Below, piece after piece: positions 12,499 through 60,908 of a stretch of DNA of 64,000 nucleotides. The stretch is from Escherichia phage A7_1. The stretch's first letter is position 1; each line of letters opens with the position of its first letter. Made by a program: the position numbers and the translations under genes. The stretch lies in the sequence record OP795442; one strand, 5' to 3'. Under the pieces are notes generated by a model that saw nothing but the letters and a program-made list of their open reading frames with translations, ran no database searches and had not been told where the DNA came from.

Positions 12499-12547
12499 GT
12501 ATCACATACGGCGGCAATAGTGCCGCCTCCAACAAAGAGAAATTATC

Positions 12548-53262: not shown

Positions 53263-54360
53263 TTAAAGTTCGAAATCGAAGTCAGATGCACTCACTGAAG
53301 AGTCAACCTGACCCGACAGATATTGACCATTTTCTAGTTCCTGTGGGGTTACCTGAACGTTTTTGGTATTCAGGTGGCTATTGATCCAAGGAATAGGGTT
53401 CTTCAGCGGTTTATCAATGAAACTATCTAAACCAACTGCTCGCATACGTTGATCAGCCATATAATCTACGTATTGCCACAGAATCTCTTTATTCAGTCCA
53501 ACCATCGAACCATCTTTGAACAGGTATTCTGCCCAATCACGTTCTTGCTGTCGTGCCTGCAAGAACAATTCACGAGCCTCATCTTTGCAATCTTCTGCAA
53601 CTCGTGCAATAAGGTCACCTTCACGACCACTTTGCATTTCATTAAGAATATACTGAGTACCAGACAAATGCAAGGCTTCATCACGGGCGATCAGTTCAAT
53701 AATGTTGGTGTTACCAGTCATGATACTACGCTCACCAAATGCAAACGAACATGCAAAGCTCACATAGAAACGAATTGCTTCCAGAGCATTAATACTGTGC
53801 ATACACAGGTACAGTGCTCGTGCATGTGCATAACGATCAACTGGCAGGTTCAAAGCGTAACGACTATTCAACTGGAATAAATCGTCATACAACTTCGTAA
53901 CCGCATCAGCACGTTCCAGAATTTCTGGAGTTTTCATGATCTCATCAAGAATTGCAGAAGGATCACTAAATACATTTCGAATAATGTGTGTATATGAACG
54001 ACTGTGGATTGTTTCACTGAAACCCCAAGTCTCAATCCAAGTTTCCAAAGCTGGATCGGAAACGATTGGAAGTAATACTGCATTCGGACCACGCCCTTGA
54101 ACGGAATCAAGCAACGTTTGATACTTAAGATTACTAATGAAAATATGTTTTTCATGGTCAGGCAATCCCATAAAGTCAATTCGATCACGGGTTACATCGA
54201 TCTCTTCCGGTCGCCAGAAGAATGCCAACTGCTTTTCTGTCAGCTTTTCAAATTTGTTATGTTTTTGCTTGTCGTAACGAGAAACGTTAACAGACTCACC
54301 AAAGAACATCGGTTGTTCCATGAAATCAAACTGGTTTTTATTAAAAGTCGTGTAGCTCAC
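53263..54360 (-). CDS. nrdB: ribonucleotide reductase class Ia beta subunit
   Basis: 365 aa; ferritin-like di-iron core; adjacent to nrdA. Confidence 0.85.
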
Positions 54361-54415
54361 TTATTATCTCCTCTTCGTTAATCTGAAAACCATTATACCT
54401 GAACTTACCAAGAAA

Positions 54416-54757
54416 TCAATAGTTATTTCTTAAAATTTCAATCCCATACCGCTTAAAGACTTCCTTTGCTGCCATAAACTTTTGTGCTGCACTTGGATTT
54501 GAAGTGTGAACAAACAGAACAGCAGGATACAGGATCGGTTTGCCAAACACAAGTTTTTCTTCTAACATTTCTAAGCAGCGGTAACCTTCTTTTGAATCTT
54601 CACCAAGGTCATTGTCGAAGTGCCATTCTGTTACCCGACGATACATTTTATTGGGGTCATCAAGGAACTCGATAAACTGGTCAGAATTTTTAAACCAGAT
54701 GGCATCATCATGCCCGTAATCTTTTGGATCTCTCAAATCATCAAGCCAAATCTTCAT
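54416..54757 (-). CDS. hypothetical protein
   Basis: 113 aa ORF. Confidence 0.55.
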   Translation of the reverse strand: MKIWLDDLRDPKDYGHDDAIWFKNSDQFIEFLDDPNKMYRRVTEWHFDNDLGEDSKEGYRCLEMLEEKLVFGKPILYPAVLFVHTSNPSAAQKFMAAKEVFKRYGIEILRNNY

Positions 54758-54813
54758 CTTTTCCTCCTGTCTCGTTTATGTGGTTTATTATACGGATTAC
54801 CTTACCAAAGTCA

Positions 54814-54840
54814 ATAAAAAACCGCCCCGAAGGGCGGTTA
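54814..54840 (-). terminator. terminator hairpin AACCGCCCCGAAGGGCGGTT (family copy)
   Basis: on minus strand followed by TTTTTT. Confidence 0.6.
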
Positions 54841-54843
54841 ATT

Positions 54844-55032
54844 TTAATTGTACTTGTTGAGAATGTTAAACATATCTTTTGCAATATATTTATTGTCTCG
54901 ACAACCAGCAAGGTTGTTACGAAGTGCAGCCACATAGATCTCTGTGCCGCAACCTGGGTAGGATGTGCCGAATCTTTTTGCCTGTCTTTTAAATGTCCAA
55001 CGATCAATAAAGAACCAAGAGATAAATTTCAT
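54844..55032 (-). CDS. hypothetical small protein flanked by two identical hairpins
   Basis: 62 aa; SD GAGGAGGAA. Confidence 0.45.
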   Translation of the reverse strand: MKFISWFFIDRWTFKRQAKRFGTSYPGCGTEIYVAALRNNLAGCRDNKYIAKDMFNILNKYN

Positions 55033-55043
55033 ATTCCTCCTCA

Positions 55044-55063
55044 GAACCGCCCCGAAGGGCGGT
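55044..55063 (-). terminator. hairpin AACCGCCCCGAAGGGCGGTT between nrdA and small gene
   Basis: identical stem-loop; no clear T-run on minus strand, so attenuator or stability element is equally possible. Confidence 0.4.
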
Positions 55064-55072
55064 TATTTATTG

Positions 55073-57331
55073 TCACAGTTTACAAGCGCCAGATTCGCAG
55101 CCTTCATCCTCTTCATCTTCACCATCGCGAGTTTCTTGATAGTAAACAGTCTTCAGGCCAATCTTGTAAGCATACATCAGGTCACGCAGCACAATCTTAA
55201 TCGGCAGTTTGCCACCTGGATAATCCCAAGGTTTGTAGAAGGTATTGGTCGAGATCGATTGGTCAATAAACTTCTGGATGATAGCCATCAGGTTAAGATA
55301 AGCTGTCGGTCCATTCATATCCCATTTGTACTCGTACACCACACCTTCCTCACCAACACCAGGAACCAGCGTCGGAAGCATACCCGCAGGTGACTTCTTA
55401 AACGTCACTGGACCACGAGGAGGTTCAATGCCGTTGGTAGAGTTAGTAATCTGGCTTGATGTTTCACAAGGCATCATTGTGGACAACGTTGAGTTACGTA
55501 ATCCGTGCAATGCGATATCCAGACGCAAACTTTCCCAATCTTGTTGCAATTCTGCGGTATGCAACTGATCAACTTCTTTCTTGTAGCGATCGATAGGTAA
55601 GATGCCACGAGAATAAGATGTTTGATCGTACCACTCACAAGAACCACGCTCTTTCGCTAACTGAACAGAAGCTTTCAGCAGGTAGAACTGGAATGCTTCC
55701 GCAAGTTTATGAACTTCATTGGCAGCTTCCGGTGAACTATATTTAAGTCCACGTTTAGCTAAGTAATACGCCAAGTTAGTCCAGCCAATACCCAAGGTAC
55801 GACGCAGTAACGTTTTCTCTGCTGCAAGAACAGGGTAGTTCTGATAATCAAGCAGGTTATCAAGAGCACGTACCGTGATCATAACAGGTTCTTCTAAATC
55901 TTCAAGCTTCTCAATCTTCCCGAGGTTGATTGCTGATAAAGTACACAGTGCAACTTCACCAGAATCTTTCGGGTCCTTAATGTTATTGATCGGAGCCGTA
56001 GGTAATGCAATTTCCATACACAGGTTAGATTGCTTAATCGGAGCCACTTCAGGAAGGAACGGACTGTTGCTGTTGCAATGGTCAACGTTCTGAATATAAA
56101 TACGACCTGTCTGGCTACGTTCTTGAGCTAAACGAGTGAAAGCATCAGTCGCTTCAAGCTCTTTGCGAGGAATGGAAGGGTCTGCTTCCAATTTCTCATA
56201 CAGTTCTGCAAATGCTTCTTGATCCGAGAAGAAGTATTTATACAGATCACCGTTTGCTACGTTTGGATGGAAGAAACTGATCTTGCCACCTTTCTGTAAG
56301 CGAGTATAGAAGAACTTGTTGATCTGAACACCATAATCAACATGTCGTGCACGGGTGCTTTCAGTACCACGGTTGTTCTTCATTACGATCAGGTTTTCAA
56401 AGTCCCAGTGCCAAATCGGGTAGAAGTAGTTAGCTGAAGCTTTACGCAGACCACCTTGAGATGCCCAACCTAAAGATTCTTGATACATTCGAACAATGCC
56501 AACCGTACCTGCATGTTTAACTTCCCCGCCGCGAATAGGAGCGTCCTGTCCACGAATAGCACCAAAGTTCAAACCGATACCTGCTCGCTGTGCTGCATAC
56601 TTACCTTGTGCTTCAACTGCTGCAAAGATCTGGTTAATATCATCACCGGACTCAATCAGTACACAAGAACTGAATTGTCGAGTCGGAGTTCGTACACCAC
56701 CCATAATCGGAGTAGGCAGAGAAACCTTCATGGTAGAAACCATATTGTACAGATCAATCACTTTTTGTAGACGCTTCTTAGGATCTTCTTTACTCATCAA
56801 GCACATTGCGATCAGCATCAGTGCTGTCTGAGGAGATTCAAAGATTTCACCTGTTACACGATCCTTGACTAGATATTTATCTTCGTACTGACGCATAGCT
56901 GCGTAAGTGTAATCAAAATCACGGTCATGATCGATAACTGTATCTAAAAATTCAATCTCTTCTTTCGTGTAATCTGAAATAAGATGTTCATCGTATTTAC
57001 CGCGAGCTACAGTCATAAGAATGTGAGCGTACAGTGGACGAGGTTCAAAACCACCATAAGCCTGCTTACGCAGTTTAAACAGAAGCAGACGTGCTGCTGG
57101 ATACTGATAGTTTGGACTTTCTACACTAATTAGGTCCGCTGCGGACTTGATCAGGGTATCGTGAATCGCGTCGGTTTCTACACCATCATACATCTGAATC
57201 TGAGATTTCATCAGGATATCAGAAGGACTTACATCATTAACCCCTTCACAAGACCAAACTACAACACGGTTGATCTTCTCAGCTTCGAATTTCTCTACAG
57301 AACCATTACGCTTACGAACAGTAATACCCAA
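55073..57331 (-). CDS. nrdA: ribonucleotide reductase class Ia alpha subunit
   Basis: 752 aa; N-terminal ATP-cone; C-terminal Cys pair; SD AAGGAGAA. Confidence 0.9.
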   Translation of the reverse strand: MGITVRKRNGSVEKFEAEKINRVVVWSCEGVNDVSPSDILMKSQIQMYDGVETDAIHDTLIKSAADLISVESPNYQYPAARLLLFKLRKQAYGGFEPRPLYAHILMTVARGKYDEHLISDYTKEEIEFLDTVIDHDRDFDYTYAAMRQYEDKYLVKDRVTGEIFESPQTALMLIAMCLMSKEDPKKRLQKVIDLYNMVSTMKVSLPTPIMGGVRTPTRQFSSCVLIESGDDINQIFAAVEAQGKYAAQRAGIGLNFGAIRGQDAPIRGGEVKHAGTVGIVRMYQESLGWASQGGLRKASANYFYPIWHWDFENLIVMKNNRGTESTRARHVDYGVQINKFFYTRLQKGGKISFFHPNVANGDLYKYFFSDQEAFAELYEKLEADPSIPRKELEATDAFTRLAQERSQTGRIYIQNVDHCNSNSPFLPEVAPIKQSNLCMEIALPTAPINNIKDPKDSGEVALCTLSAINLGKIEKLEDLEEPVMITVRALDNLLDYQNYPVLAAEKTLLRRTLGIGWTNLAYYLAKRGLKYSSPEAANEVHKLAEAFQFYLLKASVQLAKERGSCEWYDQTSYSRGILPIDRYKKEVDQLHTAELQQDWESLRLDIALHGLRNSTLSTMMPCETSSQITNSTNGIEPPRGPVTFKKSPAGMLPTLVPGVGEEGVVYEYKWDMNGPTAYLNLMAIIQKFIDQSISTNTFYKPWDYPGGKLPIKIVLRDLMYAYKIGLKTVYYQETRDGEDEEDEGCESGACKL

Positions 57332-60219: not shown

Positions 60220-60858
60220 TTACTCTTTCCCCTCTGAGAGTTTGATAATTAATTTTGCAGTTTCAGTTAGCTTACCATTAACGTTTTCAACGTCGAAATC
60301 TCTAGGTCGTGCACTTTCAGGGAAATTCTCAGAGTAAATATAATTACGAGAATCACCTTCAAAAGTTAATTTATTACCTGTTCGTGGATCAGTACGATGT
60401 AAACGGATCAGGGTGTAATCACCATTTACCGCTTTAACTACCGGAACACTTTCATGAATAAATCCACCATCAGAGCTAATAAATGTACAAGTATAACCAT
60501 CCATTTCCATACTTTTCGCAATATCTTTAACACGCTTGGCAAGAGCAACACCGAAGTATTCTTCCCCGAAGAGAGGCTTCGCAACATTCTCCGAGATGTG
60601 GATCAGCCAGTTACGTGGGGACACTTGTTTACCTGCAACATTAAAATATGGTTGAGGTACTTCTTTATAATCACGGTGGTAAAGTGCATCCCACAGTTCA
60701 CGATTAATACCTGCAATACGAATAGCTAGATCGATAAGGGAACCTTTAAACTCCACATGAATACCCACGTTGTTGCCTACGGTAACTAACTGAGCGATCT
60801 CACCAGCAAGAGCATCTTTACCAGAAAAAGCAGGACCATTCAAATTGATAAATTTCAT
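60220..60858 (-). CDS. deoxynucleoside monophosphate kinase (T4 gp1-like)
   Basis: P-loop LNGPAFSGKD near N-terminus. Confidence 0.6.
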   Translation of the reverse strand: MKFINLNGPAFSGKDALAGEIAQLVTVGNNVGIHVEFKGSLIDLAIRIAGINRELWDALYHRDYKEVPQPYFNVAGKQVSPRNWLIHISENVAKPLFGEEYFGVALAKRVKDIAKSMEMDGYTCTFISSDGGFIHESVPVVKAVNGDYTLIRLHRTDPRTGNKLTFEGDSRNYIYSENFPESARPRDFDVENVNGKLTETAKLIIKLSEGKE

Positions 60859-60881: not shown

Positions 60882-60908
60882 ATAAAAAACCGCCCCGAAG
60901 GGCGGTTA
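60882..60908 (-). terminator. terminator hairpin AACCGCCCCGAAGGGCGGTT (family copy)
   Basis: on minus strand followed by TTTTTT. Confidence 0.6.

Follow-up and report, generated by a model that had tools for sequence, protein, structure and literature searches.

The ribonucleotide reductase (RNR) region of Escherichia phage A7_1 (record OP795442; the 64,000-nt stretch that we analyzed is hereafter called the window) carries a small open reading frame (ORF) of 62 aa that lies on the minus strand between two exact copies, 225 bp apart, of a 20-nt UUCG hairpin, as a first-pass annotation of the window had recognized. The copy between nrdA and the ORF (hairpin 1) is probably a duplicate of the terminator stem that lacks a U tract, was left at the nrdA terminator by recombination, and is read through by RNA polymerase, serving as an RNA-stability or weak attenuator element. 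The copy beyond the ORF (hairpin 2) shows all the sequence hallmarks of an intrinsic terminator and is joined to a near-consensus promoter (P1); the RNR region is not one operon and is split by this conserved terminator-promoter junction. The 62-aa ORF, widely left unannotated or called "hypothetical," proves to be a real, conserved accessory gene under purifying selection. These points bear on annotation and on the understanding of how genes are expressed in a group of phages under development for therapy.

The window comes from a Septuagintavirus-type phage of the Vequintavirinae. Its nrdA-nrdB region is 96.6 to 97.3% identical to those of Escherichia phages UPEC06, A5-4, A73, W70, and vB_EcoM-LTH01 (LTH01), whose home is the Septuagintavirus clade of that subfamily (PMC11370258, a paper that makes no mention of promoters, terminators, or the 62-aa ORF). 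Hairpin variation was compared across these six Septuagintavirus genomes, the window included. The next relatives, at 74 to 77% identity over the NrdA C terminus, are Certrevirus phages (CR3, CR8, CR9, phiTE, POP15, F1M1E, and others) and Salmonella phage SSBI34; L-numbers denote sequences in the comparison.

The repeated 20-mer AACCGCCCCGAAGGGCGGTT occurs exactly three times in the window (54820-54839, 55045-55064, and 60888-60907), with no fourth match even when three mismatches are allowed. The first-pass annotation had counted four copies: three of them stand (one beginning at 55045, not 55044), but the fourth, which it placed at 29330, is a related hairpin at 29329-29348 (hairpin 4; AAACCGCC-TTCG-GGCGGTTT as DNA), a one-pair variant in another stem register. 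A chance origin for the repeat is ruled out, since 100 dinucleotide shuffles gave no match, again with up to three mismatches. The stem has 8 bp, 6 of them GC pairs, and forms a perfect 8+8 palindrome; CUUCGG appears on the minus (sense) strand in each of the four copies, which yields a C(UUCG)G tetraloop hairpin on the RNA. The predicted folding energy of the 20-mer is −14.6 kcal/mol, against −6.0 ± 2.2 kcal/mol in shuffles (z = −3.9), and each of hairpins 1 to 4 supplies the stable, GC-rich stem-loop expected in the transcript at an intrinsic terminator.

What separates hairpin 1 from the others is its tail. Past the G/C core of hairpins 2 to 4, 7 of 8 nt are U (the tail is UUUUAUUG after hairpins 2 and 3, TTTTATTG in DNA, and UUUAUUG after hairpin 4), and the d'Aubenton-type U score reaches 4.9 at both hairpin 2 and hairpin 3 and 4.84 at hairpin 4. 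Hairpin 1 has 3 U in 8 nt past its GC core, in the tail CUGAGGAGG, and a U score of 2.15. The first-pass annotation was therefore right that the upstream copy has no T-run on the coding strand, where the tail reads CTGAGGAGGAATATG. A U tract is thus present at hairpins 2, 3, and 4 and missing at hairpin 1, so we do not class hairpin 1 as a terminator, whereas the other three are predicted to be ordinary intrinsic terminators of the C(UUCG)G type. In this phage lineage, the 20-mer is the usual stem of intrinsic terminators, always with UUCG on the transcript, and it marks unit boundaries in these genomes: the Vequintavirinae records listed have 4 to 7 hairpin copies per genome, and near-identical sequences occur in 341 phage records. 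Many unrelated phages have such sequences, which are labeled terminators where they are annotated. An Rfam search of positions 54300 to 55300 returned no family at the gathering threshold (the best scores were 25.1, 21.7, and 19.7 bits). A terminator role on the antisense strand was rejected; the plus-strand tail ATTTATTG scores 3.35, but there is no credible plus-strand promoter or gene nearby.

All genes from ~28.5 kb to 64 kb of the window lie on the minus strand, where the order is nrdA, hairpin 1, the 62-aa ORF, hairpin 2 with P1, a gene for a cREC_REC-domain protein, a second promoter (P2), and nrdB. The first-pass annotation had set the ORF between nrdA and nrdB; it does follow nrdA, but it does not directly adjoin nrdB, from which the 113-aa cREC_REC gene and P2 separate it. 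The nrdA stop codon (TGA, 55075-55073) is followed by an 8-nt spacer (CAATAAAT) and hairpin 1, and the minus strand then reads CTGAGGAGGAAT up to the ATG of the ORF. Past the ORF, 4 nt (AATT) lead to the hairpin 2 stem (54839-54820), then TTTTAT; the junction thus consists of hairpin 2 with a U6 tail, 5 nt, and TTGACT-16-TATAAT. The gene downstream of P1 is here the cREC gene, which is preceded by a ribosome-binding site (RBS).

An identical or near-identical hairpin, U tract, and promoter stand directly upstream of nrdB in CR3, CR9, F1M1E, POP15, phiTE, and SSBI34 and in the metagenomic contigs L022, L023, L025, L026, and L030; in L032, the same junction is located upstream of the cREC gene. 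The promoter is TTGACA-17-TATAAT in most of these relatives and has a weaker −10 box in a few, and P1 aligns with the Certrevirus nrdB promoter (PnrdB of POP15) beyond the boxes themselves (…TCCGTATAAT..ACCACA…). In all relatives examined, the junction is kept whether or not the small gene is present. The six Septuagintavirus genomes share one and the same hairpin 2 stem, with a loop of TTCG, TTTG, or TTCT. The depositors of the phiTE record labeled the orthologous hairpin "terminator," and the same hairpin sequence carries that label in P7_Pc at another locus, adjoining the DNA polymerase gene. The junction would end the nrdA transcription unit and restart transcription toward nrdB. Since the nrdB region has its own promoter in every relative, there is no continuous RNR operon into which the ORF could have been wedged, as the first-pass annotation supposed. 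The cREC gene and P2 are confined to Septuagintavirus-type genomes, including L032; the cREC gene is absent from Certrevirus and SSBI34.

Several lines of evidence establish that the ORF is a gene: its ratio of nonsynonymous to synonymous divergence, a family of homologous clusters, a syntenic Certrevirus homologue, and a confident helical model. Its product and A71_48 of Escherichia phage A7_1 have 100% identity. In comparisons with each of the five close relatives, pN/pS is 0.11 to 0.13, with pS at ~0.24. The homology search that the first-pass annotation had proposed revealed a real family, PHROG 14771 (E = 3.7e-5, residues 2 to 58, the sole Pfam or PHROG match of the product). A profile search (E <= 1e-3) recovered 69 homologous clusters of 49 to 80 aa, none with a Pfam domain or an informative name, and phmmer over 1.84 billion representatives added three further clusters; the protein had no sequence match in the PDB and no PADLOC match. 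The family shares the motif W-F..R-W ... N-x-x-x-C-R ... I..D-M..I, in which F7, R11, C44, I50, D53, M54, and I57 are invariant, and AlphaFold2, given the family alignment, predicts three helices (residues 2-24, 29-38, and 48-60) with a predicted local distance difference test (pLDDT) score of 86.5. The ORF is a previously uncharacterized but unremarkable member of a small phage protein family. Homologues of the small gene are also present but unannotated in the GenBank or RefSeq records of CR3 (L006, 3142-3312), Mulvp2 (L013, 1501-1662), and KpTDp1 (L014, 1501-1662).

The small gene comes and goes among the relatives. POP15, F1M1E, CR3, L025, and L030 carry a 56- to 58-aa homologue at the orthologous place (the POP15 protein, syntenic with that of the window, is 31% identical to it, with a pairwise E of 2e-8), and L026 has a homologous reading frame with an ambiguous start; in all six, the gene lies a few nucleotides past the nrdA stop or overlaps it, with no upstream hairpin. 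CR9, SSBI34, L022, and L023 do without the gene and run from nrdA through 3 to 8 nt to a single hairpin, the promoter, and nrdB. The gene is kept throughout the six Septuagintavirus genomes and in L032, whose protein is 62% identical. A hairpin right after nrdA together with the small gene is found in two lineages only, Septuagintavirus and phiTE; in the latter (L008, 3131-3498), an additional insert of ~355 nt, opening with GCCGCCC-TTCG-GGGCGGC, separates nrdA from the small gene. That insert also holds an unannotated short ORF (MFKLHTVTKMLRLANRLNEIVAGMEARKRAMLQEMEISQKQERAV...). Outside the Vequintavirinae, homologues sit in tightly packed operons of siphovirus-like phages or prophages (among them Mulvp2, KpTDp1, L015-L020, and L033) and have no flanking hairpins.

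These distributions qualify the view, taken in the first-pass annotation, of the ORF as an independent inserted cassette. It is an accessory gene at a plastic junction, absent from CR9, SSBI34, L022, and L023, with homologues in unrelated siphovirus-like phages. The hairpins are not, however, the boundaries of a cassette of its own, because hairpin 2 belongs to the resident junction and five Certrevirus-type relatives carry the gene without the upstream hairpin. Nor is the gene independent: it has no promoter of its own, its GC content at third codon positions (GC3) is that of its neighbors, and hairpins 1 and 2 are nonidentical to one another in four of the five close relatives. That annotation had held that relatives with the gene but no flanking hairpins, together with a continuous operon transcript, would count against it; on the first of these points, the siphovirus homologues have no flanking hairpins, and the Certrevirus ones have hairpin 2 but no upstream hairpin.

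The variation in hairpin 1 is itself informative. Its sequence is AACCGCCC-TTCG-GGGCGGTT in the window and A5-4 only, AACCACCC-TTTG-GGGTGGTT in UPEC06 and LTH01, and AGCCACCC-TTTG-GGGTGGTT in A73 and W70. Both arms have changed from CCGCCC/GGGCGG to CCACCC/GGGTGG, a compensatory replacement of G-C by A-U that keeps the pair, and the further replacement of A by G in A73 and W70 makes a G.U pair in the sense RNA, an A.C mismatch in the antisense RNA, and a broken DNA palindrome. At the synonymous divergence of the adjacent ORF, an unconstrained 16-nt stem would be expected to have gathered unpaired changes; the pattern, drawn from few sequences, is evidence that the RNA stem of hairpin 1 may be under selection. 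None of the six genomes has gained a U tract at hairpin 1, and the adjacent Shine-Dalgarno sequence is invariant. Gene conversion need not be invoked for the identity of hairpins 1 and 2 in the window, as three changes in 20 nt lie within a synonymous divergence of ~0.24.

Read-through of hairpin 1 is suggested by the lack of a predicted promoter for the ORF. A sigma-70-like scan of the minus strand from 55033 to ~55870 found no promoter with at least 9 of 12 matches, and a weak TAAACT candidate, located by eye at the right spacing, was rejected as the ORF's own promoter for want of a −35 box or a TG extension. With no promoter between hairpin 1 and the ORF, expression of the ORF needs read-through, and hairpin 1 is therefore unlikely to be a full terminator. 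This, with the missing U tract, supports the suggestion in the first-pass annotation that the upstream copy acts as an attenuator or RNA-stability element.

We propose that RNA polymerase passes through hairpin 1, so that the ORF would be cotranscribed with nrdA and the hairpin would form a very stable structural cap inside the nrdA-ORF transcript. It could act as a barrier to 3'-to-5' exonucleases for the nrdA segment, or as a hairpin that protects a 5' end, placed immediately before the ORF's Shine-Dalgarno sequence; the likeliest effect, after processing, would be the protection of one or both halves from exonucleolytic or 5'-end-dependent decay, with pausing, attenuation, or termination weak at most. 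CUUCGG hairpins are common in phage intergenic regions and can stabilize mRNA, as in the T4 gene 32 leader (PMC8948821, PMC4371310). A trace of the origin of hairpin 1 may survive in its flanks. Of the 8 positions in CAAUAAAU, which flanks hairpin 1 on its 5' side, 7 are complementary to UUUUAUUG on the 3' side of hairpin 2, and the two flanks pair in predicted folds, as expected if a single extended terminator (A-rich arm, stem, U tract) had been split after or within its stem. The splitting segment would have been an RBS-ORF-stem unit, brought in by integration or exchange through recombination at the hairpin; the left copy (hairpin 1) would have kept the upstream A-rich flank, and the right copy (hairpin 2) the U tract and promoter.

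A number of observations weigh against this account. In L032, which has the same gene order, the hairpin 1 site is degenerate (GGCCCUUCGGGGAC): the position holds only GGCCCTTCGGGGAC, whose predicted folding is no better than that of shuffles. The Certrevirus relatives carry the homologous gene with no hairpin 1 at all, and any function of hairpin 1 must on both counts be dispensable or lineage specific. The UUCU directly past the G/C core makes some termination possible. As to origin, the available genomes are compatible with either direction of change, an insertion that created hairpin 1 or loss elsewhere. A neighbor-joining tree of the small protein resolves three clades, with mean distances from the window protein of 0.743 to the Certrevirus type and 0.745 to the others, and fits xenologous replacement and in situ divergence equally well. 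Any insertion must also be old, given the matching GC3 of the ORF and its neighbors. The literature yielded no transcriptome for Septuagintavirus or Certrevirus, and the Certrevirus papers offer predictions only.

The likeliest rival explanation makes hairpin 1 a partial terminator, an attenuator at which a constant share of polymerases would stop once past nrdA, giving a low nrdA:ORF expression ratio. Its stem is as stable as those of proven-type terminators, two U residues and a CU follow the G/C core, and the promoterless gene downstream of the canonical terminator at hairpin 3 implies that leaky termination may be part of the design of this phage. A U tract is, however, required for efficient release by E. 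coli RNA polymerase in intrinsic termination. At hairpin 1 it is essentially absent and is restored in no relative, while the Certrevirus relatives and L032 manage without the hairpin altogether; we disfavor the attenuator on the basis of the missing U tract and regard it as unlikely. Far less credible is a duplex between hairpins 1 and 2 over 205 nt that would enclose the ORF, for example as a stem for processing by RNase III or as an antiterminator acting on hairpin 2. In the window, this long-range duplex is the minimum free energy (MFE) structure of the 281-nt transcript, 5.2 kcal/mol better than two local hairpins (z = −4.7), but UPEC06 and A73 have the two local hairpins as their MFE structure. 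With the compensatory change, hairpin 1 keeps its local pairing and the long helix gains an A.C mismatch, and ribosomes translating the ORF would disrupt that helix; UUCG hairpins, moreover, fold locally and cotranscriptionally. Being the MFE structure in the window only and not conserved, the duplex was rejected. No more can be said for the palindrome as a DNA operator bound by a dimeric phage or host protein, an idea we consider extremely improbable. A perfect 8+8 palindrome at several intergenic sites would suit such a protein, yet the orientation strictly follows transcription, with UUCG on the sense strand, and a U tract is present at three of the four sites. The wobble change breaks the DNA symmetry and not the RNA pairing, the loops drift to UUUG and UUCU while the stems are kept, and the near-identical sequences of many unrelated phages are, where annotated, labeled terminators.

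The remaining alternatives concern recombination and draw on the promoter-early stem-loops (PeSLs) known from T4-like phages, cassettes that combine terminator and promoter and through which modules are shuffled (Arbiol 2010, PMC2839356; Comeau 2014, PMC4122927). By analogy with these, the two hairpins could be the direct-repeat boundaries of a shuffling cassette, a 225-bp unit mobile via its 20-bp repeats, with hairpin 1 a scar that has no function as RNA. The "empty sites" of CR9, SSBI34, L022, and L023 (nrdA, one hairpin, promoter, nrdB) speak for this; phiTE has a different insertion that begins with a hairpin right after nrdA, a gene found in POP15 and absent here adjoins hairpin 3, the complementary flanks of hairpins 1 and 2 are those of a split terminator, and hairpin 1 is decaying in L032. 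Against this, the compensatory change and the G.U wobble suggest that selection acts on the stem as RNA, the repeats span no more than 20 bp and are nonidentical in four of the five close relatives, and the gene is kept in all six Septuagintavirus genomes and L032. The CR9-type empty sites, furthermore, are in Certrevirus, and since gene-bearing members of that genus have no upstream repeat, those deletions were not repeat mediated. We judge a mobile cassette with a functionless scar to be quite unlikely. A broader idea, which we hold to be doubtful, is that the Vequintavirinae terminator stem, alone or with an early-type promoter, is a PeSL-like recombination module at a hyperplastic nrdA-nrdB junction. 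The small ORF, the hairpin-led insert of phiTE, and the cREC gene would then be cassettes inserted, swapped, and excised within the 20- to 28-bp hairpin, and hairpin 1 the left-hand product of one integration. If so, the 225-bp unit of A7_1 and A5-4, whose repeats are identical, should still excise at measurable frequency, and this would be the first such system outside the T4-like phages, extending promoter/terminator-mediated modular shuffling beyond them.

The hairpin 2/P1 junction shares features with a PeSL. It is an intergenic stem-loop adjacent to a strong sigma-70 promoter, relatives differ at it in gene presence and in insertions, repeated stem-loops flank a small ORF whose product has no known function, and the early region of the window has further promoter and stem-loop modules. 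Indels cluster at the hairpins (the small gene, the insert in phiTE, the cREC gene, and the extra gene that POP15 has after hairpin 3), although the Certrevirus gene bearers have no upstream repeat. The differences are that the stretch common to hairpins 1 and 2 is 20 bp and that common to hairpins 2 and 3 is 28 bp, instead of the ~100 bp of PeSLs, that the promoters share consensus boxes only, that hairpin 1 has no promoter, that the subfamily is another one (Vequintavirinae), that most gene-bearing relatives have only one of the two repeats, and that the present case is known from sequence. By this analogy, the junction appears to work like a PeSL but is not a member of that class in its defined sense, and the case of hairpin 1 is an ordinary one, PeSL-like at most, with nothing as it stands that would surprise a specialist.

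Hairpin 1 is best described as a terminator-derived structural hairpin. C(UUCG)G intrinsic terminators were first noted in T4 intercistronic regions, according to the citations of Tuerk et al. 1988 in PMC8948821 and PMC4371310. The hairpins here share with them an 8-bp GC-rich stem, a UUCG loop closed by C-G, an intergenic position a few nucleotides past a stop codon, and, at hairpins 2 to 4, the U tract; they differ in that hairpin 1 has no U tract and abuts a Shine-Dalgarno sequence, and in that the loops of close relatives drift to UUUG or UUCU. With protective 5' or 3' mRNA stem-loops such as the T4 gene 32 leader (PMC8948821), hairpin 1 has in common a stable structure with no U tract, placed in a polycistronic RNA between a stop codon and an RBS; unlike them, it is predicted from sequence and is degenerate in one relative with the same gene order. 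The ORF, for its part, resembles a moron as a small, variable accessory gene before a terminator with homologues scattered over unrelated phages, but it lacks the moron hallmarks of its own promoter and terminator and an atypical composition: no promoter is its own, the terminator is part of the resident junction, and GC3 is 0.381 against 0.366 to 0.389 in neighboring genes. The features of the locus and the other hairpin copies are collected in the table.

Table. Features of the nrdA-nrdB region and other hairpin copies (window coordinates)
Feature	Position	Strand	Evidence or remark
nrdA, class Ia ribonucleotide reductase large subunit, 752 aa	55073..57331	-	Pfam ATP-cone, Ribonuc_red_lgN, Ribonuc_red_lgC (E 3e-125); PHROG 84
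Hairpin 1, AACCGCCC-UUCG-GGGCGGUU	55045..55064	-	8 nt past nrdA stop; tail CUGAGGAGG
Shine-Dalgarno GAGGAGG of 62-aa ORF	55036..55042	-	Direct read; begins 3 nt past hairpin 1; invariant in 6 genomes
62-aa ORF, ATG...TAA, PHROG 14771 family	54844..55032	-	PHROG match, homologues, pN/pS
Hairpin 2 with U tract (GGCGGUUUUUUAUUG), predicted intrinsic terminator	54816..54839	-	U score 4.9; orthologous site kept in relatives
Promoter P1, TTGACT-16-TATAAT, 11/12 matches	54787..54814	-	Begins 5 nt past hairpin 2; orthologue of Certrevirus nrdB promoter
113-aa cREC_REC-domain gene	54416..54757	-	Pfam PF20274 (E 5e-18); PHROG 1479
Promoter P2, TTGATT-16-TATAAT, directly upstream of nrdB	54392..54419	-	Promoter scan; conserved in L032
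nrdB, ribonucleotide reductase small subunit, 365 aa	53263..54360	-	Pfam Ribonuc_red_sm (E 1.7e-44); PHROG 86
Hairpin 3, third exact 20-mer with U tract	60888..60907	-	After exonuclease gene; no promoter before next gene
Hairpin 4, variant AAACCGCC-UUCG-GGCGGUUU with U tract	29329..29348	-	~15 nt past stop of gene 30068..29364

Hairpin 4 lies near the low-coordinate end of the minus-strand gene block. The cREC_REC domain (PF20274) is a cyclic-phosphate-processing receiver; in UPEC06, the gene carries the label "RNA ligase 1 and tail attachment protein," for which the domain match gives no support. No tRNA or transfer-messenger RNA (tmRNA) gene was found in the window.

The surroundings of hairpin 3 recall those of hairpin 1. 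Although hairpin 3 has the form of a canonical terminator, U tract included, gene 60858..60220 follows it with no intervening promoter; in POP15, the orthologue of hairpin 3 likewise stands after the exonuclease gene and is followed by a 102-aa gene that is absent from the window. The RBS and start after hairpin 3 (CTGAGAGGAG..ATATGAAATTTATC) are closely like those after hairpin 1 (CTGAGGAGGAATATGAAATTTATC), and ATGAAATTTATC occurs at two places only in the window, after hairpin 1 and after hairpin 3. That hairpin 1, the RBS, and ATGAAATTTATC were copied together from the hairpin 3 locus was considered and rejected, because each N terminus is native to its own family: small-gene homologues begin with MKVILWF and MTVLWWF, and in POP15 the orthologue of the gene after hairpin 3 begins with MILINLN. 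The shared ATGAAATTTATC is an unexplained coincidence.

The arrangement of a GC hairpin with no U tract, 3 to 20 nt, a Shine-Dalgarno sequence, and an ATG recurs in the early region of the window, downstream of promoters. On the plus strand between 12289 and 17581, a sigma-70-like promoter (TTGACA or TTGCAA, 17 nt, TAAGAT or TATAAT) is followed by ~11 to 12 nt, a GC stem-loop, 10 to 20 nt, a Shine-Dalgarno sequence, and an ATG. These stem-loops (at 12510, 13190, 13505, 15092, 17249, and 17561) precede small ORFs and are perfect, GC rich, and free of a T run; their sequences vary by site, and they look like 5'-leader stem-loops on early transcripts. The composites resemble the PeSL subclass in which the stem-loop lies downstream of the −10 box. 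Also on the plus strand, two related GC hairpins, AAAGGCCGC-AATA-GCGGCCTTT and GGGCCGC-TATT-GCGGCCC, lie ~300 nt apart at 24299-24320 and 24614-24631, and a TTGACA-like box follows the one at 24299-24320.

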